In this document: positions 19,805 to 36,114 of the stretch, one piece after another
Position numbering within the stretch: the first letter of the stretch is position 1
Layout of the letters: every line of letters begins with the position of its first letter
Position numbers and translations under genes: made by a program
Assembly (NCBI GenBank): GCA_963781885.1
Contig: CAWAHW010000002.1
Span: forward strand, 1,376,001 to 1,440,000
Reading direction: 5' to 3'
DNA length: 64,000 bases
From: an uncultured Spirochaetota bacterium
GTDB taxonomy: Bacteria; Spirochaetota; Spirochaetia; SZUA-6; Fen-1364
The notes under the pieces: model-generated
Database searches by the model: none
Told to the model about the DNA's origin: nothing
What the model saw: the letters and a program-made list of their open reading frames with translations, nothing else

Positions 19805-21117
19805 GTGAGCCAGCCCCGCAAGGTCTGGATGGAGACCTACGGATGCCAGATGAACAAGGCGGAATCCGAATCCATCCTGATCGCGCTCACCGAAGCGGGA
19901 TGGGCGGAAGGAAGCGCCACCGACGCGGAACTTGTCATCCTGAACACGTGCTCGGTACGCGAGACTGCGGAAGAGAGGATACGCGGCCGGCTCGGGTACT
20001 ACCGGCACCAGAAACAGCATCGCCCCCTCACGCTCGTTCTCACCGGATGCATGGCGGAGCGTCTCAAGGCAAAGGTGATCGACGAGCATCCCGAGGTGGA
20101 CGTCGTGGTCGGCACCTTCAGCAAGCGGGAGCTGCTCGCCGCGGTGCGAAGCGCGGAGGAAAAGCAGGCGCCGGTCGTCGCCGCGGCGGAAGAGGAATAC
20201 GCGTTTGCGCCGCTGCATTCGTCGCGCGGCACAAAGGCATTCGTCCCCATCATGCACGGGTGCGACAACTGGTGCACGTACTGCATCGTGCCGAGGGTCC
20301 GCGGCCGTGAAATCTCGCGCTCTCCGGACGCGATCGTCGCGGAAGTGACGGCCCTCTCGCGCCGCGGAGTCAAGGAAGTCACGCTCCTGGGGCAGAACGT
20401 GAACTCGTATGCGTGGCCCTCGGGAGACGGCGCGATTCTTTTCCGGATCTGCTGCGGCAGGTCGAGCAATGCGCGGGGTCCGTGGAATGGCTCCGCTTCC
20501 TCACGTCACATCCCAAGGACCTCTCAGGGGAGCTTCTGGCCGTGATGGCGGAAAGCCGTATCCTGTGCCGGCATATCCATCTCCCGCTCCAGAGCGGCTC
20601 CACCCGGATCCTCGGCCTGATGAACAGGGGATATACCGCCGACCAGTATCGCGAAAAAGTGCGCGCCATACGGTCCTCGCTCAGCGGCGCTTCGATTACG
20701 ACCGATATTCTCATTGGCTTCCCCGGTGAGACGGAGGAGGACTTCGAGGAGACCCTCGCCATGATGGGCGAAATCGGCTTCGACGACGCCTTCACCTATC
20801 ATTACAACCCGCGGGAAGGCACGCCCGCCTTTGACATGCCGGATGCCGTCCCGCCGGACGTGAAGCGCGAGCGGCTCGACCGCGTGATCGAGGCGCAGCG
20901 TTCCATCGGCGCGCGAAAGGCCTCCGAAAGGATCGGCAGGGAAGTTGATGTACTGGTCGAGGGGATATCGAAAAAAGACTCCGGCGAGCTTCTTGCGCGC
21001 ACCGCGTGGGACGCCATGGTGGTCTTCCGCGGAACACCCGACAGAATCGGCGGCTTCGCGCGCGTGCGGCTCGCGTCGCTCGCGGGGAACACTTTCCGCG
21101 CGGAAGCCCTGGCGTAG
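19805..21117 (+). CDS. miaB: tRNA-2-methylthio-N6-dimethylallyladenosine synthase MiaB (frameshift near 20440, likely sequencing error)
   Basis: TYGCQMN, NTCSVR, GCMA, radical-SAM CDNWCTYC; continues in another frame with RFLTSHPKD, HLPLQSGS, GFPGETEEDF and TRAM domain; one T missing in a T run. Confidence 0.92.
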
Positions 21118-23829: not shown

Positions 23830-24808
23830 GTGAAATATGCCTTCAGCCTGTCGAGCACGATTTTCTTTGTCGCCTCCAGGCCGTCCCGGCATTTGAAGCC
23901 CGCGGCCGTCTTGTGGCCGCCCCCGCCGAATATCTGGGCGATCTCGGCGACATCGATATTTCCCTTGGAGCGCAAGGAACAGCGGAGGAGACCCTCGAGG
24001 TTCTCCTTGAAGAATACGGACACGCGGATATCCTCGCTTTTGAGGGGGATATTGATCAACTGGTCGGCTTCCTCGTAATTGGCACCCGAATCAATGACCA
24101 TCGTCCTTGAGCATTGTCAAGATCGAGACGTGATTGTCGTAGACGAGCTCCAGCGTGGAGAGCACGCGCGACTGGAGCACGAGCGCGGAGATGGAGTTGC
24201 TTTCGTAGATCTTCGCATAGACGTAATTCGGCTCCACTCCCCGGGACACGAGGTCACGCGCGATCTCGAATGTGAGGGCGGTTGTTTTCGGATAGATGAA
24301 AGAACCGGTGTCATAGACGATGCCCGTGAAGAGCGCAAGTGCAATCTCGTAGTCTATCGCGACGCCCATGGCGACGAGGATGCGGTAGATGATTTCCGAC
24401 GTCGAGGAGGCGCTCTTCTGGATGAAATTCCCCGTTGAGATATCCTCTTCCTGCTCGTGGTGATCGATGATGAAATGATCGCGCGACGCGCGGGAGAACA
24501 AGCTTCGCGATCTGGCCGATGTTGTTCACGTCATTCGTGTCCAGCATCAGGAGCGACCACTGCGCGATGTCCGCGGGGAGCTGCTCCTCCCTTTCCAGCA
24601 CGCCGACGATCTTGTCGGAATCCAGGTAGGCGAATTTCCGCGGCGTCGGATCCGCGTTGAGGATGATGGCTTTCTTGCCCTGGCTTCGCAGCGCCCGCAG
24701 CATGGCGCATTCGCTTCCGATGGCGTCCCCATCAGGGGTCTCGTGCGCCGTGATGACGAAACGTTCCGTGCGGGTGAGGAAATCGATGGCGGTCTGGAAT
24801 TCGTTCAT
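23826..24808 (-). CDS. nrnA: DHH/DHHA1 phosphoesterase (NrnA-like oligoribonuclease/pAp phosphatase); two apparent +1 errors near 24485 and 24106
   Basis: HETPDGDAIGS, LDT, IIDHH, SSTSEI, GIVYDTGSF, SLRSK, GGGGHKTAAG distributed over three frames. Confidence 0.85.
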
Positions 24809-25987
24809 GCCGATTCCCCGGCTTCCGTTGCGACGGCCAGGCGCCGCAGGCGCGGGGTCGCCGAGGATGCTCGTGCCGCGGCGCAGCACCTTCAGCTTGC
24901 GCAAAGTGGACGGGGAGACGCCCTGCGCCACGTAGCTCGCTGCCTCCGCCTGGAAACCATTGGGAATGTCGACATTGGCGCCGATCACCGCGATGCCGTC
25001 CCGGATGTGCGTGGGGAAATCGGCGTTTTTCATGGACGATGTCTTTGCGCCGATTGCGCAATTGTCCCCGATATTCGGACCCGTGCGCGGCGCGTCCGAC
25101 GCATAGGGGAGAATGAGCGCGTTGTGGATCTCGGTGCCGCTGCCGATGCGATTGCCGTTCAGGACGACCGAATGGGAAACGAGCGCATGACGGCGGACCA
25201 CCACGTTGGGGAAAATGATGGAATCCTCCACCCGGCCTTCCACCTCGACGCCCGAGGCAAGCCATGAGTTCCTGATGCTCCCCTTTTCACCGATATGGGA
25301 TTCGGCACCCTTGTCGGCGAGCTCGGGCAAGCGGGCGACGGCCGTGTGGAACCGGGCGTCCTCGCAGTGCGAGACGACCCAGATATTGTTCGTGTAGTAA
25401 TCCATGAGATCGTTGTAGAAAAGGATTTCCCCCGGAAGGTCTTCGATCAGGTCGATGGCCCCGTGCAGCACCCCCTCGAACAGGCCGTCGCGAAGACCGC
25501 GGCGCCCCCCGTTGCGCTCCGCGGCCGCCGCCAGGAGACGCGTCATGCGGGGACGCGGGGCGCAGTACATGTCAATGGGCGTGCGACCCACCGATATCTT
25601 GACCAGCTGGTCGGTCGTTGCCGAGACGAGGCCGCGCAGCGCACCCGCCTCCATGAGGCAGACGCTGGAAAGCGCCGCCAGCACGATGTGGTCCGCTCCG
25701 GATGCCTCCACCATGGTCGCGAGCTCGGCGAGCCCTCCCTCCAGCACGTGCGCGCGTACGATCTGCTTTTTCCAGCGCGAGGTGAGCGCCAGGGCCGCGT
25801 CGCGGGTGCCCTCCTCCAGCACGATGCTGAACTGGAGCTCGGGGCCAAGGCCGAAATTCGCCAGGGCGAAATCGATCAGGCAATGGGAGCCCCAGAAGGG
25901 GAGGAGAGAAAAATGAAAAGTATCCCCAAAACCCGGCAGACCCTGCTGCGGCCCGATATCGAAGAAAAATACGGCGGTCGTGCCCAG
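24809..25987 (-). CDS. GlgC/GlgD-like protein (degenerate nucleotidyltransferase plus left-handed beta-helix); reads in frame into the DHH gene
   Basis: ORF extends upstream to a CTG at 25987: LLPFWGSHCLIDFALANF resembles AVPFGGRYRLIDFALSN; LbH repeats IRNSWLASGVEVEGRVEDSIIFPNVVV; no GGxGxRL loop. Confidence 0.65.
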
Positions 25988-25988
25988 T

Positions 25989-27377
25989 CTATTTCTTCCT
26001 TTCCTTCGACTGCACCTTCATCGTCAGGGCCTTCCCGTCTTCCGCGCGCAGGGCAAAGGATTTGCCGCGCGCATCAGGGGGAATATCCGTGAGCTTCGGG
26101 AAACGGTCCTTCTTCAGAACCCCTAGCAGGATCCTGCCGTCCTTCAGAGAGAATTTCGCGATGCTCCGGCCCGTCCTGTTGCCGACCAGCGTGAAGGCGC
26201 CCTTGCCCTCCGTGAGGAAAAGCTCGCGCCGGCCGCGCAGCGCCACAGGCGCATCGGTGAGGGGCTTGTCCTGGATGAGCACGCCGAACCGGACGGGCTT
26301 TCCCGCGGTGAGGCGCCAGATCAGATAGATCACAGCGGCAACGATGATGAGCAGGAGGACGATCGCGGCAATGAGGACGATCAGGTTGTTCTGTATCCAG
26401 CCGGCAACGGTGAAGGATACGGAAGGCTCGGCCGGAGAGAAGCTCTGGCCGGCGCCGAACGTGAAGAATATCGTTCCGCTCAGGCTCCCCGGCTGCGGTA
26501 CGGAAGGGAAGGCAAGCGGAATGGAGACGGCAGTCGACCCGATCTTCTTCACCGTGAAGGTGAAGGGGGCCTTGAGGATCTGGGGGGCGGGGGTCATGCC
26601 CGTCCGCGCCTCGATACCAACCACTGTCACCTTCGTATCGTCCTTCAACCCGCTCGATGTCAGGGTGAATGAAACGCTGCTGCTGCCGTCCGCCCTGATG
26701 GGGCTGACGCGGGCAGCGCCTTTCATCTCCACGGTGGCGAAGAGGCTGCCCGCCTGCTGGTCCATCGCGCCGACGTTCGTGATCTCGTTGTACGATCCCT
26801 GGAGCTCCTTTGCGAGATCTTTTGCCGCGGTGTCCGTTCCGATGCCGAGGATCATCACCTTCCATCCTTTTTGCTGGATGGTTTTCGTATTGGTGAGGAA
26901 CTCGTGGTTGAACTGCCCGTTCTTTGAGTAGTACTTGCTCGTGGCGGGCGCCTCCTGGATACCATCAGTCAGGAGGAGGACGTATTTCTCCCGCCCATCG
27001 GATTCCCGCGCCGCCACCTGGGCCTTCACCGCGTCGAGCGCGTTGCCGATGTCCGTGAAGGCGCCGTTCCCCTTGATGCCGGATATCAGCTTCTTCAGCG
27101 CCGTCTTGTCCGCATCGTCCTTGATCTGCTGCGAAACGATGACGTCAGCCTTTCCGTAGAACTCGACCACGATTAAATAGTCACCGGGGATGAGCAACTG
27201 GTCGACAATGGAGCTGTTGACCCACGATTCCACCGCGCCGATCTTGTTCTCCATCGACAGCGACTTGTCGAGGGCGATTACGACGTCGATGTTGCTTGTT
27301 CGGGTATCCGCCAGAAGAGGGGCCGCAAGGCCTGCGCAAAGCGCCGCGACGATCAAAAAGGCTTTCCGGACTCTCAT
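25989..27377 (-). CDS. Exported VWA-domain protein with TM anchor and cytoplasmic tail
   Basis: Signal peptide; MIDAS DKSLSM, FTDIGNAL, LLTDG; TM helix LIVLIAAIVLLLIIVAAVIYLIW. Confidence 0.88.
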   Translation of the reverse strand: MRVRKAFLIVAALCAGLAAPLLADTRTSNIDVVIALDKSLSMENKIGAVESWVNSSIVDQLLIPGDYLIVVEFYGKADVIVSQQIKDDADKTALKKLISGIKGNGAFTDIGNALDAVKAQVAARESDGREKYVLLLTDGIQEAPATSKYYSKNGQFNHEFLTNTKTIQQKGWKVMILGIGTDTAAKDLAKELQGSYNEITNVGAMDQQAGSLFATVEMKGAARVSPIRADGSSSVSFTLTSSGLKDDTKVTVVGIEARTGMTPAPQILKAPFTFTVKKIGSTAVSIPLAFPSVPQPGSLSGTIFFTFGAGQSFSPAEPSVSFTVAGWIQNNLIVLIAAIVLLLIIVAAVIYLIWRLTAGKPVRFGVLIQDKPLTDAPVALRGRRELFLTEGKGAFTLVGNRTGRSIAKFSLKDGRILLGVLKKDRFPKLTDIPPDARGKSFALRAEDGKALTMKVQSKERKK

Positions 27378-27512: not shown

Positions 27513-29546
27513 ATGGCTGCTATTGACCTTCCGAAAAGCCCGAATGTGTTCCATCCGGAAAAGCCGAGCGCCGTCGGTTCTCGAAACTCGCTGGCCCAGG
27601 AGTTCAGGGACCAGCAGGCCGAGGTCGACCTCCTCATGTCGGAAGAAGTCGACAAGGTCATGAACCATATCTCCTCCAAGCTCCCCAAGGAAGTGGCGGA
27701 CAAGCTCGACATCATGGGCGGCATCAAGGAGAAGCTGTACAACTACTTCAACCAGAACTACCAGAACATGTTCAACCGCTTCATCGTCACATCGGAAGAC
27801 GAGATGGTGAAGAAGGTCAGGAACTTCATCGACAAAGAGGAAATGAAGACCCTGGCCCGCTACACCCCCAAGGAGATCGCCGCGCTCCTGGACCAGGTCG
27901 GCGGCATCGACAAGTTCAACACGGGCGAAATCGAGAAATCGATCGTCAACATGTACGGCCATTTGCAGGGCCACATCCAGCGCGGGGTGAACGACCTTGA
28001 GAACGTCACCAACTCCCTCCTGCGCCAGAAGACGGACGTCGGCGCGTTCATCCGCGGTGAGAACGCCTATTCCATCGTGAAGTGCTCCTTCAAGGACAGC
28101 GCCTTCAAGCCGAAGACGGTCACCGACGTGAAGCTCTCCGTGAACATCCTCGACTCGGAGCTCATCAGCCCCATCTTCCACTACCAGGTGACGGTGGAGT
28201 TCCTGGTGAAGGACCTCATCTCCAAGAACATCCTCGACCTGATCGACAAGGAGATCGAGAAGCTGAAGGACCAGGTCGTTGATGAAGGGCGGGAAGAGCT
28301 CTCGGACGGCGAGATCCTCTTCGAGAAGATGAAGAGGGTGGAAAAGTTCACCTCGGATGAAAAGGACGACGCACGGTCCAAGAGGTACTCTTTCTTCGCC
28401 AAGGCTCTGATGGACAAGATCGAAGGCCTCCGCGCGGAGATCGATCCCGAGGAATATGATCCGGTGAACATCCGTGAGAACCTGAAGCGGATCATCGACA
28501 TCGAAAACATCAGGAACCGCGGCTTCAACACGGCCATCAACTCCATCACGTCCATCCTCGACACCTCGAAGATGGGCTACCAGCACGTGGAGAACCTCAA
28601 GAACGCCCGTGAGCTGATCCTCCGCGAGTATGAGGACACGGACGACGCGCACCTGCCCGACGAGCGCTACGCCATCCGGCTGAAATATTACGATCAGGCG
28701 CAGCTCCTGGAAGAGCGCAAGGCCTACGACGTGCAGGCAAAGAGCTTCGAGGTGGAAGTGCTGCACGTGTGGGACGTGCTGGACATGGTGTATGAGGATT
28801 CGAAGTTCCTGAAGGGCGTCGTGGATTTCGAAGACCTCGCGCGCAAGCTGAAGGGGAAGATCAAGAGGCGGATCAAGGCGCGCACCGGCGACCCGCTCTA
28901 TGAAGACATCGAAAAGAGCTGGACGGAAGTCACCTTCATCAAGCCGGGGGACACGGACGTCGAGCGCATGAACCGCACCTATATCTCGGAGAAGGACGAC
29001 CTGAAGCGCCGCATCATCCTGATGCGCGACAAGCTGCAGAAGCTGTATGGCTACCGCTACCCCATCCAGCGCCGCGTCATTGAAGACAGGGTCGCGTTCC
29101 TTGAAAAGCAGTTCCTCAGGTTCGAATACCTCATCAACCCGTACCACATCCAGCCGGGGCTCCTCCTGGACGTGAATATCACGTCCATCAAGAGGAAGAA
29201 GGCCACACTGGACGGAATGGCGAATGTTTTGAACGAATTCCTCTACGGCGTATCCAAGGGATTCCAGGACGCGGCATTCGCATCCTTCTCCCGCCGCCGC
29301 TCGACGGTTCGCGCGGACATCGCGCAGTCCTTTGCCGCCAGCGCGCCGGAAGCCCCGGCCGCCGAAGGCAAGAAGTCGGAGTACCTCGACATGCTCAACG
29401 TTCCGGCCGCTGATGCAAAAGTAGCAAAAGCTGCGGAGCAGGGCGTCGTCGACGTGGCACCGCGCCGCCGGCGCGGCCGCCCTGCCAAGCAGGCGCGGGG
29501 GAGGCCGCGGAAGGGCTCCGGAGACGTAGGGCTCCGAGAAATCTGA
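27513..29546 (+). CDS. cfpA: Cytoplasmic filament protein A
   Basis: N-terminus [30 protein letters not shown] matches treponemal CfpA as I recall it; 677 aa, coiled-coil rich; AGGAG SD; strongly biased codons. Confidence 0.95.
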
Positions 29547-29561
29547 TTAGGCGGGTAATCG

Positions 29562-29597
29562 AATGGTGACCCTTCGGGGTCACCATTTTCATTTCTA
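29562..29597 (+). terminator. Intrinsic terminator or stabilising hairpin after cfpA
   Basis: 11-bp stem AATGGTGACCC-TTCG-GGGTCACCATT followed by TTCATTTCT. Confidence 0.75.
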
Positions 29598-29659
29598 TCG
29601 CGCGCGTGCGCATTTTCCTTTCCAGCGCGGCGTACGCGATGAGGATAGAGGGGAAACAG

Positions 29660-30739
29660 ATGCCGGAACAAGTCCATGCTTTCGACGAGCTTGCCACACG
29701 GGACGGTTTCAACCGATCCCTCAGGCACTTCAAGTTCATTTCAACAGTCATCGGGGCTTTTGAATCGAGGCGCAACATCGCCGACACCTTGAGCGAATGC
29801 CTTGCCGACAAGAGCATCGAGCCACGGCAGGTGCTGCCGACGCTCAACGCGATCCTCGTCGACAAGTATCACTATCTCTGCCGGTCGCGAAACCTCACGG
29901 AAAGCTTCGAAGATTTCGACTCCCTCACGCAGACGGTGGGCACCTGGCGCGCGGTGGACCTCGTGGTGGCATACTTCCACCCCGAGCTCGGCGTCGTGGT
30001 CGTCAACCCGAAGAACCGCGAGCATTGGGAGGTCGTCCGCGCGCTGAAGAAGAACGAGCTTGTCGCCGTCTTCGCCGGCGCATTCGGCGAGACGGAGGAT
30101 CACGACAAGAAGTACGCCGACGCCATCACGCTCCTGATCGCCCTCATGGAGGGCGGGAAGGTGAAGACGCCGGCCGTCCTCACAAAAGGCAAGTTCGTGT
30201 TCAAGAAGGCAGCGCCCGTGGCGCCGCCGGCTCCTGCAAAGGCCCCGCGCAAGGCGACGCGGGGAAGACCCGCCAAGGCGTCGCGCATCGACCTGAGCGC
30301 CGCCGTCGCCGCGGCTCCTGCCGCGAGCCTTCCCGCGTACTCGTCGGCGCCGACGACGGCCCTCGCGCCCGCGCCGTCGGCCGCCCCCGCCGCGCCTTCC
30401 GGCGCGCCGAAAAAGATGACGCCGATGTATTCCATCCCCGTGACGAATGAGCTCTTCCACAACGGCAATGTGGAGGCGTGGAAGAAGATCATTCAGAGCT
30501 ACACCACGAAGTATCCGGGGCTGGACGTGTACGTCTTCTACGAGGGGGAACGCATCCACGACATCAACACCCTTTTCAAGTGGGGGAAGGTGAAGCACGG
30601 CAGCGCCATCATGATCGCGGTCGCCGGCGACGACATCCGGGACGTGGCGAAGCTCCAGCGCTACCTGAAGCAGGGCGCCAGCCACATGTTCGAGGCATTC
30701 CTCAAGGCGCAGGTCGGCGCGATCCTGAACCTGTTCTGA
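29660..30739 (+). CDS. cfpA-adjacent conserved protein: N-terminal domain of unknown function, Ala/Pro linker with AT-hook, C-terminal HPr-like domain
   Basis: C-terminal VTNELFH...KYPGLDVYVFYEGERI...NTLFK..GKVKHGSAIMIAVAGDD aligns by eye to HPr; GAGGG SD. Confidence 0.75.
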   Translation: MPEQVHAFDELATRDGFNRSLRHFKFISTVIGAFESRRNIADTLSECLADKSIEPRQVLPTLNAILVDKYHYLCRSRNLTESFEDFDSLTQTVGTWRAVDLVVAYFHPELGVVVVNPKNREHWEVVRALKKNELVAVFAGAFGETEDHDKKYADAITLLIALMEGGKVKTPAVLTKGKFVFKKAAPVAPPAPAKAPRKATRGRPAKASRIDLSAAVAAAPAASLPAYSSAPTTALAPAPSAAPAAPSGAPKKMTPMYSIPVTNELFHNGNVEAWKKIIQSYTTKYPGLDVYVFYEGERIHDINTLFKWGKVKHGSAIMIAVAGDDIRDVAKLQRYLKQGASHMFEAFLKAQVGAILNLF

Positions 30740-30759
30740 TCTGAAAGGGAAGGACACAG

Positions 30760-33405
30760 ATGAAGAAGAATATCCACTTCTTTGACCAGGGCGAAGCGAA
30801 CGTCAAACCGCAGGTTCTCGAGCGCATCGGCATCCGTGGCCGTCTTGCCATGGAGCTGGCGGATCTCGACCTGCCCATCCTGCCCGGTTTCATCATCGAC
30901 GCCGAGGTGGCGGCGCACCTGAAAGACTACGATATCTGGGCGGCGCTCTCGCCCTGGTTGGACCGGCTTGCAAAACTGACGGGAAAATCCTTCGGGGACG
31001 TGGAAAATCCGATGTTGGTGAAGATCGTCATCAGCCCCAACCTCGTCATTGCCTCCTACCCGACGCTGCACAACTTCGGGCTCACGGACACCACCGTGCC
31101 GGGATTCAACCACTATGTCGGGGAGAACTTCGGCTGGCACGAGATGCAGTTCCTCACGAGCGGAAGCCTGGAGATCGAGCTCGCCATCGCGGAGCTGGAG
31201 AACAGGGAGAAGGACGCCAAGGCGATCAAGCAGACCATCAAGGAGCTGGGCGCGGAGCTTTCCTCGGAGCGCGACTCGAAGAAGCGCAAGGAGAGCGTGG
31301 CGCGCTGCATGAAGATGCTGCCGGAGGGGTATTTCGCGGACCCCATGGACCAGCTTGTCATCGCCCTGAAGCGCATCAGCCACCTCCTGTCGATCACCGA
31401 TCAGAACCAGGAAGACACGGCGCTGATCATCCAGCCCATGGTGTACGGCAACTACGGCAAAGACTCCCTGAACGGGCAGTTCTATACCCGCAACATCGTC
31501 ACCGGGGACAAGGAGATCCAGGGCGAGTATTTCCAGAACAAGTTCAACGCCATCGGCACGGCGGGATCCGACATCTCCAACATCGCCAAGACCTATCACG
31601 CGGAGCTGGAGAAGATCGCCCGCGCCGTGGAGGACCATTTCCGGGAAATACGGTCCATCCGCTTTACCGTTGAAAACAAGAGGCTCTGGCTGATCGATCA
31701 GCGCTCCGTCATGACAAAGAGCACGCAGGCGGACATCCGCCTCCTGCTGGATCTGCATGCGCGCAAGATCGTTGATGACACCTACGTCGTGAGTCAGATC
31801 AAGCCGGGGCAGCTCAACGAGATCCTGCACCCCATCATCGATTTCACGTCGGTGAAGGGCCTGCCCTGCTTGACGGGCGGCATCACGGGTGCGCCGGGAG
31901 CCGCAATCGGCAGGATATTCTTCTCCACGGAAGGGCTCCTGGAGGCCCACAAGCTCGCCCAACAGAAGGGCCATGACACGAAGCTCATCCTCTGTCTCGT
32001 CTCGTCCTTCGCTGAGGACGTGAAGGCGATAGAAGTGGCCACCGGCGTGCTTTCCACGGAAGGCGGATACTCGGCCCATGCATCGGTCGTGGCGCGGCAG
32101 TATGGCAAGGTGTCGCTCGTCAAACCCGAGATGAGGATCAAGGGCAACAAGGCCACGATCGGGGAGCGAACAATCAAGGAGGGGGACTACATCACGCTGA
32201 ACGTCCCCTTTTACGGCGCCCCTTCCATGTACCTCGGCAAGGCGGAGCTCATCGAGCCGGATCCCGAGGAATCGGGCATGCTCGATTTCCTCGCGCTTGT
32301 GGAGAAATTCGTGAAAGGCTTCCACGTGCGGGCGAACGCGGACAAGCCGCGCGATGCCGCCCTGGCGCGCAAGTTCGGCGCAAAAGGCATCGGCCTGGTG
32401 CGCACAGAGCACATGTTCTTCGACGAGAAGCGCATCAACGTCTTCCGCGAGATGGTCCTTTCGGACTCGGTGGAGGATCGCAGGAAGGCCCTGGCGAAGC
32501 TTCTTCCCATGCAAAAGGCGGATTTCTACAAGCTGCTGAAAATCATGGAAGGCTATCCCGTCATCATCCGCCTGCTCGATGCGCCGCTGCACGAGTTCCT
32601 GCCGCACAACGACCAGGAGCTCGAGCGTTTCATGAAGTACTTGAATGTCGGAAAGACCGGCGCCAAGCGTATTCCGGAAAAGGACGTCCGCGCGCGCTCA
32701 GAGGCGCTGCACGAGTTCAACCCCATGCTGGGACACCGCGGCTGCCGCATCGCCGTTTCCTATCCCGAGATCTATGAGATGCAGGTGCGCGCGATTTTCG
32801 AGGCGGTCTACACGCTGCGTAAGGAAGGCGTGCACGTCGAGCCGGAGGTGATGATCCCGATCATCATGAACGAATCGGAGCTGAAGCTCATCGTCTATGG
32901 CAAGAAGATCGAAGGGAAGCACATCCGCGGCCTCGTCGACATCGAGCTGGAGGTACGGGAAAGCTTCAAGGCAAAACCTGCGCCCTACAAGATCGGCACG
33001 ATGGTGGAGCTGCCGGCCGCCGCGCTCGGGGCGGACCAGCTTGCGCGCTACGCGCAGTTCTTCTCCTTCGGGACGAATGACCTCACCCAGACGACAATCG
33101 GGTTGTCCCGGGACGATTTCAACGCCTTCATGCCAGACTACACCCAGTTCGACCTCCTGGAGGGGAACCCCTTCCAGATGCTCAACCCGCAGGTGCGCGA
33201 GCTGATCGCCCTGGCGGTGAAGAGGGGCAAGATGACCCGACCGGACCTCGAGGTGGGACTCTGCGGAGAGCACGGGGCGGTGCCGGACAACATCCGCTTC
33301 TGCATGGAAGCAGGGCTGGATTACGTTTCCTGCTCGCCATACCAGGTGCCACTGTCGAAGCTTGCAATCGCCCAGCTGGAGATCGAAAAGAAAGCGGCAA
33401 AATAG
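30760..33405 (+). CDS. ppdK: Pyruvate phosphate dikinase-like PEP-utilising protein with degenerate ATP-grasp domain
   Basis: Phospho-His GGYSAHASVVAR, GIGLVRTEHMF, IRLLDAPLHEF, EFNPMLGHRGCR, FSFGTNDLTQ, GLCGEHG intact; N-terminal nucleotide-binding motifs altered. Confidence 0.85.
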   Translation: MKKNIHFFDQGEANVKPQVLERIGIRGRLAMELADLDLPILPGFIIDAEVAAHLKDYDIWAALSPWLDRLAKLTGKSFGDVENPMLVKIVISPNLVIASYPTLHNFGLTDTTVPGFNHYVGENFGWHEMQFLTSGSLEIELAIAELENREKDAKAIKQTIKELGAELSSERDSKKRKESVARCMKMLPEGYFADPMDQLVIALKRISHLLSITDQNQEDTALIIQPMVYGNYGKDSLNGQFYTRNIVTGDKEIQGEYFQNKFNAIGTAGSDISNIAKTYHAELEKIARAVEDHFREIRSIRFTVENKRLWLIDQRSVMTKSTQADIRLLLDLHARKIVDDTYVVSQIKPGQLNEILHPIIDFTSVKGLPCLTGGITGAPGAAIGRIFFSTEGLLEAHKLAQQKGHDTKLILCLVSSFAEDVKAIEVATGVLSTEGGYSAHASVVARQYGKVSLVKPEMRIKGNKATIGERTIKEGDYITLNVPFYGAPSMYLGKAELIEPDPEESGMLDFLALVEKFVKGFHVRANADKPRDAALARKFGAKGIGLVRTEHMFFDEKRINVFREMVLSDSVEDRRKALAKLLPMQKADFYKLLKIMEGYPVIIRLLDAPLHEFLPHNDQELERFMKYLNVGKTGAKRIPEKDVRARSEALHEFNPMLGHRGCRIAVSYPEIYEMQVRAIFEAVYTLRKEGVHVEPEVMIPIIMNESELKLIVYGKKIEGKHIRGLVDIELEVRESFKAKPAPYKIGTMVELPAAALGADQLARYAQFFSFGTNDLTQTTIGLSRDDFNAFMPDYTQFDLLEGNPFQMLNPQVRELIALAVKRGKMTRPDLEVGLCGEHGAVPDNIRFCMEAGLDYVSCSPYQVPLSKLAIAQLEIEKKAAK

Positions 33406-33419
33406 TCCTTCGAAGTCAT

Positions 33420-33453
33420 AAAAAAACGGCCGGGAAACCGGCCGGTTTTTTTT
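33420..33453. terminator. Bidirectional intrinsic terminator
   Basis: A7-CGGCCGG-GAAA-CCGGCCG-G-T8 between convergent genes. Confidence 0.9.
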
Positions 33454-33465
33454 GAAAAGCTCGTT

Positions 33466-34017
33466 CTATTTGTTCCAGATCGTGAACCGGTGCATTCCAT
33501 CAACCACAAGCTGGCTTGCTTTGACGGCTTCCGCCTTCGGCACGCCGGCCTCCTTGTTGAGCGTCGCGGAAAAAAACTTCCCAACCGTCTCGTAGACGTC
33601 CGGCAGATTGTAGAAAACAAAGGAGAAATTGATGCCGCTGGGCTTGAGGACAGTGAAGGACCCATAGGTCATGAGCGGGCTCTTGCTCACCATGACCTTT
33701 GTCTGGTTCCGGGTGGTAAGGATGTCCAGCTCCGCGAATCGGTGGGGGATCTGGTCCTTTGCCGTCCGCCGGAAGGGCTCCAGGTGCTTCTGCGCATAGG
33801 AAGGGGGTTCCGCCAGGACGAAAAGTTTGTTGCCGTCGGTCTGGAACGTGAGCCCCTCTTCGGTCAGGACGATTGATTTCACCCCGTTGTAGGCAACCAC
33901 CTCATAGCGCGCATACGACGAGTTCTCGTCGAGGAAAGAGGATACGATGTACCCTCCGTCACTGGGCAGCTGACTGTCGGCGTAGGCCTTGAACAACTCG
34001 AGTGCTTTCGGCTTCAT
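33466..34017 (-). CDS. Hypothetical cytoplasmic protein
   Basis: Start MKPKALELF with GGAGG SD; typical codon usage. Confidence 0.75.
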   Translation of the reverse strand: MKPKALELFKAYADSQLPSDGGYIVSSFLDENSSYARYEVVAYNGVKSIVLTEEGLTFQTDGNKLFVLAEPPSYAQKHLEPFRRTAKDQIPHRFAELDILTTRNQTKVMVSKSPLMTYGSFTVLKPSGINFSFVFYNLPDVYETVGKFFSATLNKEAGVPKAEAVKASQLVVDGMHRFTIWNK

Positions 34018-34091
34018 CCGTTTCCTCCATGGTTCCGTCCCATAGTATAGTCGGATTTTACCTGCACGCAATGAAAAGTGCAGCCGGTCTT

Positions 34092-34228
34092 GCGGCGCCC
34101 CAATCCGCCGGAATACGGCGGCGCCCCAATCCGCCGGAATACGGCGGCGCCCCAATCCGCCGGAATACGGCGGCGCCCCAATCCGCCGGGATACGGCGGC
34201 GCCCTAATCCGCCGGGGATACGGCGGCG
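34092..34228. repeat. Tandem repeat, 5 copies plus a partial copy of 26-bp GCGGCGCCCCAATCCGCCGGAATACG
   Basis: Units start at 34092, 34118, 34144 (identical), 34170 (1 change) and 34196 (27 bp, contains the TPR gene stop). Confidence 0.95.
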
Positions 34229-36114
34229 TGGTATTCCGCCGCTTTAGCGAGGAAGGTCTCCGCAAAAGAGTTGTTGCCCATGGCCCGGTAGACCATTCCG
34301 AGATTGCGGTTGGCGCGCCAATCCCTTGGCGCGAGCGAGATGGCCCGTCGGAATGTCTCCGCCGCTTTTTCCAGCGCCTTGTCCTGGAATTGCAGCACGC
34401 CGAGCATGAGGATGAGCGACAGTCTTTCCCCCTGCTTTTTCATGAAGCTTTCCAGCGCTTTCATACCGACGCCGCGCGCGCCCAGGCGATCCAGACAGTA
34501 GACGGCCGCCTTCATGTGCTCCTCTGCGTCGGGCGCTTCTGTCAGGAGGTCGCGCAGGAGAACCAGCGCCTCCGCGTACTTTCCCGTCCGCCGGTAGCAC
34601 ACGGCAAGCGCCGATTTCAAGCGCGCGTTGCGCGGCTCGTGCGGCAGGAGCCGGTTGATGTGATCCGCCGCTTCGGCAAAACCGTCCTCCTCCAGCAGCA
34701 GGCGAACAAGCCGCCGCCGCGCCGCCCTGTCGTCCGGCTCGACGGCCAGGTAGCGGCGGAAGACATCGGCGAGCATCTCCTTCTTTCCCAGCGCCTCGTA
34801 GACGTCGGCCAGGGCCTGGAGCATCTCGGGGTCGGGCTCGGCGACCTTCATCGATCGTTCGTACCAGCCCGCGGCGAGCTCCGGAAGCCCCGCGCGCGCG
34901 TAGGCCTGGCCGAGCTCGCCCATGAGGACCGGGTCGGGACCCCGAGCCTTGACTTGCGCCTGCAGCTCTGCAAGAACCTGCTCGATCGCCGCGCCTGTCC
35001 GGGAGAGCGCGAGGCTGTGGAAATAGGTCCCTGTCGCGTCGCCGCGATTTTTCTGCAGAACTCGTGCCGCTTCCGCGAGCAGCTCGTCGTATTCGCGTCG
35101 TTCCCAGAGCACGGCAAGCAGGCCGTAGCGCAGCTCCAGCGACGCCCGGTCCTTCTCAATGGCGCGATGGTAGTGGTTCTTCGCCTTCAGCAGCTCGCCG
35201 AGATTGCGGTAGGCCTCTGCCACGAGGGCGTGCATCTGCGGGTCATCGTAGGCCCCGCGCAGGAGCTTCGTGCCGTAGAAAATCGTCTCGCGGAAGCGTC
35301 CTTCGCGGAAAAGGTTCACCGTGATGAAGCGCAGGACGTCCTCCGGCGACCCCTGCGGGGCCACCGTGGAGCGCAGAAGCTGCGCGCCGCTTCTGATCTC
35401 AGCGGCAGCCCCCGTCTTGTCGCCCTGGGAGAGCAGGATGATTGCTTTCTGCAGGTGGAGGAAGGGGTCCTGGGGAGAGATGCGCGAGGCTGCATCCATG
35501 TGGTAGAGGGCAAGACTGTCCTTGCCGAGCTCCCGGTAGATGGACGCGAGGTAGAGGTGCGGCAGGATGCTCGCGCGCCTCTGCTCCAGAACCTCCGTGA
35601 AAAGGCGCGCGGCGTCATTCAGATCGCCGCGGTAGAACAGGCGGATGCCGAGGACAAGCGCCGTGTTCAAGTAGCCGGTCTGGAGGCGCTTGTTCTGCGG
35701 GTCAATCTCCAGCGCGCGCGCGAACCACCAGATGGCCTTGTCAGGTCGGCGGATCTTCAGGCAGGCAAGACCCAGGAGGCCGTACGCGGGCGAGAACCCG
35801 GGGGTCTTCTCCACCACGCGCGTGAGGTGCCTGATTGCCTGCGGGTAGGATTCCAGCCCGAGATACGCGCGGCCGAGGAAGAATCGCCCGGGAACCGAAT
35901 CGGGCTTCCGCCGCAAGAAAAAAGACAGGGCCTGGACGGCGCGGGCGTAGTCTCCCAGCGCGTGGTAGGACCGTCCCAGGTAGAGCAGGGCGAGCGGGTG
36001 GGCATCCGTGCTGCCGACGATCCGGGTCAGCAGCTCCACCGCCCGCGGGTAGTCGCGCGCACGGCCCGCTTCCATGGCTTGATCGAACATCTCCGCATAG
36101 TTCGTCGCGCGCAT
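34204..36114 (-). CDS. Multi-TPR protein
   Basis: Many TPR units (ALLYLGRSY, FFLGRAY, NLGMVY); upstream TG-G-TAGAAT. Confidence 0.88.
   Translation of the reverse strand: MRATNYAEMFDQAMEAGRARDYPRAVELLTRIVGSTDAHPLALLYLGRSYHALGDYARAVQALSFFLRRKPDSVPGRFFLGRAYLGLESYPQAIRHLTRVVEKTPGFSPAYGLLGLACLKIRRPDKAIWWFARALEIDPQNKRLQTGYLNTALVLGIRLFYRGDLNDAARLFTEVLEQRRASILPHLYLASIYRELGKDSLALYHMDAASRISPQDPFLHLQKAIILLSQGDKTGAAAEIRSGAQLLRSTVAPQGSPEDVLRFITVNLFREGRFRETIFYGTKLLRGAYDDPQMHALVAEAYRNLGELLKAKNHYHRAIEKDRASLELRYGLLAVLWERREYDELLAEAARVLQKNRGDATGTYFHSLALSRTGAAIEQVLAELQAQVKARGPDPVLMGELGQAYARAGLPELAAGWYERSMKVAEPDPEMLQALADVYEALGKKEMLADVFRRYLAVEPDDRAARRRLVRLLLEEDGFAEAADHINRLLPHEPRNARLKSALAVCYRRTGKYAEALVLLRDLLTEAPDAEEHMKAAVYCLDRLGARGVGMKALESFMKKQGERLSLILMLGVLQFQDKALEKAAETFRRAISLAPRDWRANRNLGMVYRAMGNNSFAETFLAKAAEYHAAVSPAD

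Follow-up and report, generated by a model that had tools for sequence, protein, structure and literature searches.

A remodeled paralogue of pyruvate, phosphate dikinase encoded beside the spirochaete filament gene cfpA, and its possible role as a PEP-driven phosphotransferase

Canonical pyruvate, phosphate dikinases (PPDKs), as represented by the structures 1dik/1kbl, 1vbg from maize and 5jvj from Flaveria, have three domains, a catalytic His and a site for phosphoenolpyruvate (PEP) and pyruvate. Here we describe a PPDK-like gene in a 64,000-nt stretch of DNA, hereafter the window, from an uncultured Spirochaetota bacterium (GenBank assembly GCA_963781885.1, contig CAWAHW010000002.1, positions 1,376,001 to 1,440,000 of the forward strand). 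The encoded protein shares all of these features with the canonical enzymes and is colinear with them over its full length. Unlike them, it carries replacements at nucleotide- and phosphate-site residues, scores below the cut-offs of the models TIGR01828 and PPDK_N, belongs to a separate clade and is encoded in an operon with cfpA, the gene for cytoplasmic filament protein A. The protein probably performs a job other than that of PPDK. We tentatively favor the reading that it is a neofunctionalized PPDK paralogue which works as a PEP-driven phosphotransferase resembling Enzyme I, and not as a dikinase.

Several other systems invite comparison. In rifampin phosphotransferase and PEP synthase, as in the present protein, a swivelling phospho-His moves between distant sites and a third domain sets the acceptor, according to passages of PMC4844700; in those enzymes the ATP-grasp domain works and the other domain varies, whereas here the ATP-grasp domain itself has changed. 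VadK (Rv1127c) of M. tuberculosis, which the excerpts covered here present as a kinase evolved from PPDK, offers a precedent for a new function. The VadK-type model NF004531 (534 residues) aligned only with residues 216–454 of our protein, and the VadK type therefore keeps the N-terminal and His parts; in contrast, in the PPDK-like protein it is the N-terminal part that has been remodeled, whereas the His and PEP parts persist. Likeness to Enzyme I of the phosphotransferase system (PTS) lies in the PEP-utilizers_C and mobile His domains and, in the mechanism proposed below, in a transfer from PEP to His to His. The Enzyme I model TIGR01417 reached 107.9 bits, compared with a cut-off of 341.7, and covered residues 651–876 only. 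The N domain of the PPDK-like protein is an ATP-grasp derivative, whereas the N-terminal part of Enzyme I is a helical HPr-binding subdomain.

An altered and conserved ATP-grasp site in a paralogue of PPDK

Attention had been drawn to this gene by an initial annotation made from the sequence and its open reading frames (ORFs), which described a degenerate ATP-grasp domain at 30,760–31,720; this span encodes residues 1–320, that is, the N-terminal domain. Pfam profiles detected PEP-utilizers_C (244.8 bits) and the mobile His domain (27.7 bits) in the product, and PPDK_N remained at 21.9 bits, under its cut-off of 27. TIGR01828, the PPDK equivalog model (EC 2.7.9.1), gave 661.2 bits against a cut-off of 843.45. 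The protein aligned end to end with C. symbiosum PPDK (1dik) at 501.6 bits. A model built with AlphaFold2 (AF2) from 63 sequences (predicted local distance difference test score, pLDDT, 88.9) retained the three-domain PPDK fold, its weakest confidence falling in the former R92–M103 and nucleotide loops, and Foldseek matched this model to PPDKs with TM-scores up to 0.72 (5jvj_A).

Substitutions were mapped through the full-length 1dik alignment and a MAFFT alignment, and canonical residues are given in C. symbiosum numbering. The two alignments agreed that K22, R92, D321/E323 and Q335 have been replaced, as initially annotated. The full set of changes comprises K22 to R26, R92 to V90, G101 to a gap or Ala, M103 to Y100, R135 to F131, T253 to N238, D321 to S299, E323 to R301 and Q335 to D313, and the G101–M103 loop is shorter than in C. 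symbiosum PPDK. In the motif LQTR, which reads IDQR here, Q335 is changed and R337 is retained as R315. The regulatory T453 has become S438 and the catalytic H455 is retained as H440. We take K22, R92, R135, E323 and Q335 to serve the nucleotide, Mg and phosphate sites, in line with mutagenesis of the C. symbiosum enzyme. Mutant PPDK structures in the PDB include K22A, R337A and T453A, and Lys22 of PPDK touches the γ-phosphate of ATP, as a passage of PMC4844700 states.

Conservation was determined in 89 relatives, left from a set of 293 after thinning at 85% identity, and compared with that in 59 canonical PPDKs. Within the clade the frequencies were 1.00 for R26, 0.97 for V90, 0.98 for Y100, 0.96 for F131 and 0.98 for R301; at the equivalent sites the canonical enzymes have K (1.00), R (1.00), M (0.88), R (0.95) and E (1.00). 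Further clade-invariant residues of the N-site region, K88, H104, R298, Q314, K320 and S321, have no counterpart in the canonical enzymes. The replacement set formed by R26, K88, H104, R298, R301, Q314 and K320 is thus conserved and largely basic. The His motif, with Ser at the regulatory Thr position, and the PEP-site motifs RTEH, IRLLD, MVE, GTND and CGEH had been reported as kept; all of them are present, and H440, R548, E550, R604, D607, E750, N773, D774 and C835 are conserved at 1.00 in the 89 relatives. The PEP/pyruvate-site residues of PPDK itself are R561, R617, E745, N768, D769 and C831.

The median ratio of nonsynonymous to synonymous substitution (dN/dS; Nei-Gojobori, 66 pairs from 12 coding sequences of the genus) was 0.099 in the N domain, 0.063 in the His domain and 0.063 in the PEP domain. 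Purifying selection acts on the PPDK-like gene, its N domain included. A pseudogene or a sequencing error was rejected because the frame is intact, dN/dS lies at 0.06–0.10 and there are hundreds of relatives; the initial annotation had also argued against sequencing errors, and the clade-wide occurrence of the replacements agrees with it. Since the replacements recur throughout the clade, they reflect more than chance. The ATP site has been remodeled and then conserved, not decayed. The label "degenerate" misleads, because the replacement residues are themselves conserved and dN/dS of the N domain is only about 0.10. We infer that the chemistry with ATP, AMP and pyrophosphate (PPi) may have been lost from the PPDK-like protein. 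In several genomes of the family (G008, G014, G018, G021, G023 and G009) the gene lies in pieces.

The same genome encodes a second, canonical PPDK (C2:714905-717613) with all motifs intact, which scored 1214.9 bits with TIGR01828 and 971 bits against C. symbiosum PPDK. A pyruvate kinase and a third PPDK_N-bearing ORF are also encoded. The idea of a genome without other routes from PEP to pyruvate was rejected, because pyruvate kinase and canonical PPDK are both there. The PPDK-like protein and the genome's own PPDK are 25% identical across the N domain, and the figure rises to 31% for the His part and 45% for the PEP domain. A FastTree phylogeny of 128 full-length proteins placed 34 of them in one clade with a support of 100, apart from the canonical PPDKs. 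In an IQ-TREE phylogeny of 51 rows, 26 clade members stood on one side of a branch with a Shimodaira-Hasegawa approximate likelihood ratio (SH-aLRT) of 100. A cluster look-up of ten distant representatives of the clade yielded hardly any taxonomy. The PPDK-like protein is a member of a separate clade and a paralogue of the genome's PPDK. A phylogeny of the clade and a search for a second ppdK or a pyruvate kinase had both been proposed as checks; the former separated the clade from canonical PPDKs and the latter found both genes. The initial annotation had overlooked the canonical PPDK, the pyruvate kinase, the selection on an N domain with new invariant basic residues, and the cfpA locus.

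The canonical PPDK of the genome (L001:1237-4221, minus strand; G000:C2) is 994 aa long and ends in an Ala/Lys-rich tail of ~85 aa, which weakly matched histone H1-like models (NF038052, 28 bits; NF038053, 26.9 bits). Its relatives in the genus likewise have long open frames (972–1085 aa). Among the 94 representatives (P0160–P0258) that fall with the canonical enzymes in the PPDK tree, 28, belonging to several separate groups, are without the K22/R92/E323/Q335 set, and ATP-site residues may therefore have been lost repeatedly among PPDK homologues.

Linkage to cfpA and a predicted HPr-fold partner

The PPDK-like gene is the last of a trio that begins with cfpA and continues with a gene for a 377-aa protein (Table 1). 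The product of the first gene passed the equivalog test for CfpA (NF040882, 1162.8 bits against a cut-off of 500). The intergenic gaps measure 59 bases between cfpA and the 377-aa gene and 20 bases between the latter and the PPDK-like gene, and a promoter scan at the locus found none. The first of these gaps contains a hairpin with a weak T tail, detected in a scan that gave 6 terminator-like sites compared with 6.9 in shuffles; it is possibly an attenuator. Metatranscriptome contigs covered cfpA relatives heavily and the 377-aa gene and the N domain thinly. One RNA contig, X8 (record 23, window positions 30,431–30,813), spans the junction between the 377-aa and PPDK-like genes, although contigs can neither prove a single transcript nor rank genes, and this observation carries little weight.

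We compared gene order in three sets of loci. Among 20 loci chosen at the order level, the 377-aa gene lay upstream in all 20 and cfpA in 19, with CfpA 74–94% identical in these; in the 20th locus the contig stops first. When CfpA was used as a query against named species genomes, 60 of the 80 loci had a downstream PEP-domain ORF. All 55 full-length ORFs of this kind carry the altered signature, without the canonical K/R/E/Q set, and they include metagenome-assembled genomes (MAGs) labeled Treponema, Treponemataceae and Rectinemataceae. At the phylum level the trio was found in 17 of 20 loci; one locus had no cfpA match and two, from family f50, had the paralogue alone.

Co-occurrence was counted in 301 Spirochaetota genomes at least 90% complete, in which rows with at least 45% identity were taken as the paralogue. 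The paralogue was present in 111 genomes and cfpA in 111: both genes occurred in 109, the paralogue only in 2, cfpA only in 2 and neither in 188. Together they were thus found in 109 of 113 carrier genomes. Family f9 comprises genera with the two genes together and genera without either, the latter retaining canonical PPDK. In one genome (G045), different contigs yielded three separate cfpA matches, each of full length.

The 377-aa protein had zero Pfam or NCBIfam matches. Its AF2 model (pLDDT 80.8) shows two folded domains, at about residues 90–185 and 272–362, with a disordered Ala/Pro-rich linker between them. VIA-align of this predicted model with HPr gave Z 9.7 and a root-mean-square deviation (rmsd) of 2.1 Å over 79 of 83 residues for residues 90–183, and Z 7.9 and rmsd 2.2 Å over 79 aligned residues for residues 272–359, whereas unrelated folds reached Z 6.3 or less. 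The modeled C-terminal domain has the secondary-structure order β-α-β-β-α-β-α, that of the open-faced sandwich of HPr. HPr and Crh occupied most of the top 50 Foldseek rows. The 377-aa protein thus models as two HPr-fold domains. A search of the ESM Atlas with its C-terminal part gave only unnamed spirochaete clusters and one, at 0.82, with PF27497 (TP_0747_N), which we regard as a lead only.

An alignment of the protein from 36 loci contained an invariant block of 12 residues, NELFHNGNVEAW, which includes His285. This block recurred unchanged in 104 of 120 loci; the other 16 were mostly truncated loci, together with the two f50 loci. In the AF2 model, His285 stands directly before helix 286–302, helix 1 of the C-terminal domain, and the match of range 272–359 to HPr 1–86 would put it near HPr residue 14–15. 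The pair resembles Enzyme I and HPr of the PTS in that the neighbor's product models as an HPr fold with a conserved His at the predicted start of helix 1. Unlike HPr, the 377-aa protein has two HPr-fold domains and lacks the H-A-R-P motif; canonical HPr genes with this motif were found at other sites in all three genomes searched for them.

Both CfpA, at its C-terminus (29,480–29,546), and the 377-aa protein, in its linker (TRGRPAKASR, 30,250–30,290), carry AT-hook-like RGRP motifs, which hint at possible DNA contact by the filament proteins. The trio is flanked by widely syntenic genes, encoding VWA-domain, left-handed-β-helix/DHH, 229-aa (no known family) and 636-aa TPR proteins, at 24,311–27,377 and 33,466–36,114, both on the minus strand. 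Farther away, a 246-aa ORF at 19,805–20,545 on the plus strand matches UPF0004 and the beginning of a radical-SAM domain; it is similar to methylthiotransferases of the MiaB/RimO type and seemingly short for one of them.

Table 1. Features of the cfpA locus, in positions of the window
Feature	Position	Strand	Remarks
cfpA, cytoplasmic filament protein A, 677 aa	27513..29546	+	first gene of the trio
Hairpin with 12-bp stem, between cfpA and the 377-aa gene	29561..29588	+	from terminator-like scan
377-aa protein, TP0747/TDE0843 family	29606..30739	+	start codon (GTG) uncertain
PPDK-like gene	30760..33405	+	intact ORF, 881 aa, full-length PPDK homologue
PPDK-like protein, remodeled ATP-grasp N domain (residues 1-335)	30760..31764	+	
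PPDK-like protein, linkers and swivelling His domain (residues 336-505)	31765..32274	+	His440 within GGYSAH
PPDK-like protein, PEP/pyruvate-binding TIM-barrel domain (residues 506-881) and stop codon	32275..33405	+	PF02896, E 1.4e-72
G+C-rich hairpin with T runs on both strands	33427..33444	.	terminator-like operon end, from terminator-like scan

The corresponding proteins of Treponema

We further explored the family in G128, a closed genome of 1.1 Mb from the same class, which has this paralogue alone (TIGR01828, 608.5 bits) together with the cfpA trio. The search of G128 gave no pyruvate-kinase candidate and no TIGR01828 match above the cut-off. GTP-dependent PEP carboxykinase (PEPCK_GTP, 544 bits) and the β subunit of oxaloacetate decarboxylase (OAD_beta, 504 bits) were found. 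The 901-aa paralogue of G128 is identical to P0282, which NCBI names a putative PEP-binding protein of Treponema pallidum and UniRef labels "Pyruvate, phosphate dikinase". Exact look-ups with the G128 proteins and with three proteins of the window matched no named entry. A second PEP-utilizer match in this genome (G128:C1:625850-626932; 112.6 bits, 711-aa open frame) is possibly Enzyme-I-like. The altered signature is common to proteins named for T. denticola, T. phagedenis, T. pedis, T. putidum and T. vincentii. By their sequences, the "PPDKs" of T. pallidum (TP0746) and T. denticola (TDE0844) are of the cfpA-linked type, and the remodeled protein is the sole "PPDK" of the syphilis treponeme.

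These genes have been described in other contexts. In the parts of PMC3373638 and PMC10013896 covered here, TP0746 (901 or 885 aa) is named Ppdk and TP0748 is CfpA. A passage of PMC10013896 states that TP0746 "most likely" turns PEP, AMP and PPi into pyruvate and ATP, and an excerpt of PMC8525777 also treats it as Ppdk. Table 5 of PMC3914990 reports joint repression in T. denticola of cfpA (TDE0842), TDE0843 and TDE0844, the last listed as "pyruvate phosphate dikinase, putative", and Table 2 of PMC3931704 lists TDE0844 as band 1 and CfpA as band 3 of the envelope fraction. The main text of a T. pallidum metabolic-model preprint, PMC11601652, does not contain the terms dikinase, PPDK, pyruvate kinase, phosphoenolpyruvate or oxaloacetate, and the portion of the Trimastix glycolysis paper covered here (PMC1665464) says nothing about treponemal PPDK. 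Our literature search, in which subscription papers and supplements were outside the scope, found no account of the altered ATP site or of the HPr-like fold of TP0747/TDE0843. The initial annotation had warned that metabolic models treating this family as a true PPDK may be wrong, and this doubt extends to TP0746, which is called Ppdk in the literature and bears the same signature.

Possible functions and their meaning for treponemes

In the mechanism that we tentatively favor, PEP would still phosphorylate His440 of the PPDK-like protein, and ATP, AMP and PPi would no longer be made or used. The phospho-His domain would swing onto the rebuilt N domain, which would serve as the docking place of the neighboring HPr-fold protein, and the phosphoryl group would move on to the invariant His285 of that protein. 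The result would be a PEP-sensing or PEP-driven relay acting on the CfpA filament system. Without pyruvate kinase or canonical PPDK, as in G128, conversion of PEP to pyruvate could run through GTP-dependent PEP carboxykinase and oxaloacetate decarboxylase. A docking role of the N domain, already suggested when the gene was first annotated, would fit the conserved operon and the predicted two-HPr-fold protein. The mechanism in its complete form is doubtful: the cfpA operon would encode an entire PEP-driven histidine phosphorelay, with the ATP site turned into a docking site and the tandem-HPr-fold protein as the carrier, and the filament ribbon would assemble, be anchored or function in step with the cell's supply of PEP. 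It would follow that T. pallidum is without any PPDK and must convert PEP to pyruvate otherwise, for example through GTP-dependent PEP carboxykinase and a Na+-pumping oxaloacetate decarboxylase.

A number of observations weigh against the phosphotransferase reading. Concerning the partner, a VIA-align Z under 8 may represent a common arrangement. The HPr model PF00381 had no match in the 377-aa protein at E up to 10. Alignment by hhalign with 29 spirochaete HPr sequences gave probabilities of 2.7% and 5%; one local match, of query residues 33–76 to HPr 27–70 (E 0.017), was in register but weak. With the AF2 model as query, Foldseek gave no match at E ≤ 0.001, the E-values being 0.07 or worse. 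The predicted HPr likeness is at the fold level only, and His285 may occupy the place of HPr His15, a position deduced from the aligned ranges and the secondary structure rather than from coordinates. Concerning the linkage, the co-occurrence of the paralogue and cfpA is overstated by kinship and is given here as counts without a test, because related genomes are not independent. General synteny may also account for part of the linkage, since the VWA, left-handed-β-helix/DHH and TPR neighbors are conserved. Concerning the enzyme, a phosphate-binding pocket may persist, with R337 staying R or K and K22 changing only to R. Distant clade members (37–49% identity) lack R26, R301 or R315. In four MAGs (G008, G014, G018 and G021) the fragmented gene has an in-frame TGA; three of these share the window's genus and G021 is of a different genus, and the codons could be assembly errors or real pseudogenes. 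In rifampin phosphotransferase, the Mg-ligand mutant Glu297Ala stays active, as reported in a passage of PMC4844700.

The acceptor need not be a protein. Most of the new invariant residues are basic (R26, K88, R298, R301, K320 and H104), and they could hold a small anion, to which the enzyme would transfer the phosphoryl group of PEP. With Pi as the acceptor (PEP + Pi → pyruvate + PPi), the product PPi would supply PPi-dependent glycolysis; with a nucleoside diphosphate, the net reaction via the phospho-His would be like that of pyruvate kinase. The intact PEP and His sites and the absence of pyruvate kinase from G128 agree with such a reaction, and PPi plays a role in treponemal glycolysis. 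Nevertheless, we regard it as unlikely. It leaves unexplained both the linkage and co-occurrence with the cfpA and HPr-fold genes and the abundance of TDE0844 beside CfpA in the envelope fraction, and we know of no enzyme with PEP-dependent transfer to Pi or to a nucleoside diphosphate of this kind.

Were the new basic residues to rebuild the ATP/AMP/PPi site, the protein would be a true PPDK and would carry the glycolytic flux from PEP to pyruvate, as assumed for T. pallidum. Its three-domain architecture, swivelling His and R337 are retained, the change of K22 to R is conservative, and pyruvate kinase and canonical PPDK are absent from G128; the naming of TP0746 as Ppdk in passages of PMC10013896 and PMC8525777 and the active Glu297Ala mutant in that of PMC4844700 point the same way. 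However, R92, R135, E323, Q335, M103 and T253 have been replaced, the G101 loop is shorter, and the PPDK_N and TIGR01828 scores are under their cut-offs. Most carrier genomes retain a canonical PPDK, the presence of the gene tracks cfpA rather than glycolytic need, and a bypass through PEP carboxykinase and oxaloacetate decarboxylase is available in G128. We consider full dikinase activity quite improbable. A non-catalytic pseudoenzyme that bridges or anchors CfpA filaments would suit the presence of TDE0844 together with CfpA in the envelope fraction of T. denticola (in the part of PMC3931704 covered), the "bridging and anchoring components" of filaments that Izard et al. 2004 name in their title and the co-occurrence with cfpA, but it is very improbable, as 1.00 conservation of the catalytic His and all checked PEP-site residues, with the lowest dN/dS in the His and PEP domains, is a pattern unexpected for a scaffold.

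The family carries the PPDK annotation in many spirochaete genomes, and papers on T. pallidum and T. denticola follow it. If the protein is not a dikinase, the last glycolytic step and the ATP/PPi balance of the syphilis agent would need re-examination. The reading of a PEP-driven phosphotransferase supplies concrete partner candidates for the treponemal cytoplasmic filament and, if true, would be a case in which an ATP-grasp active site took on another role within an otherwise preserved swivelling-domain machine.

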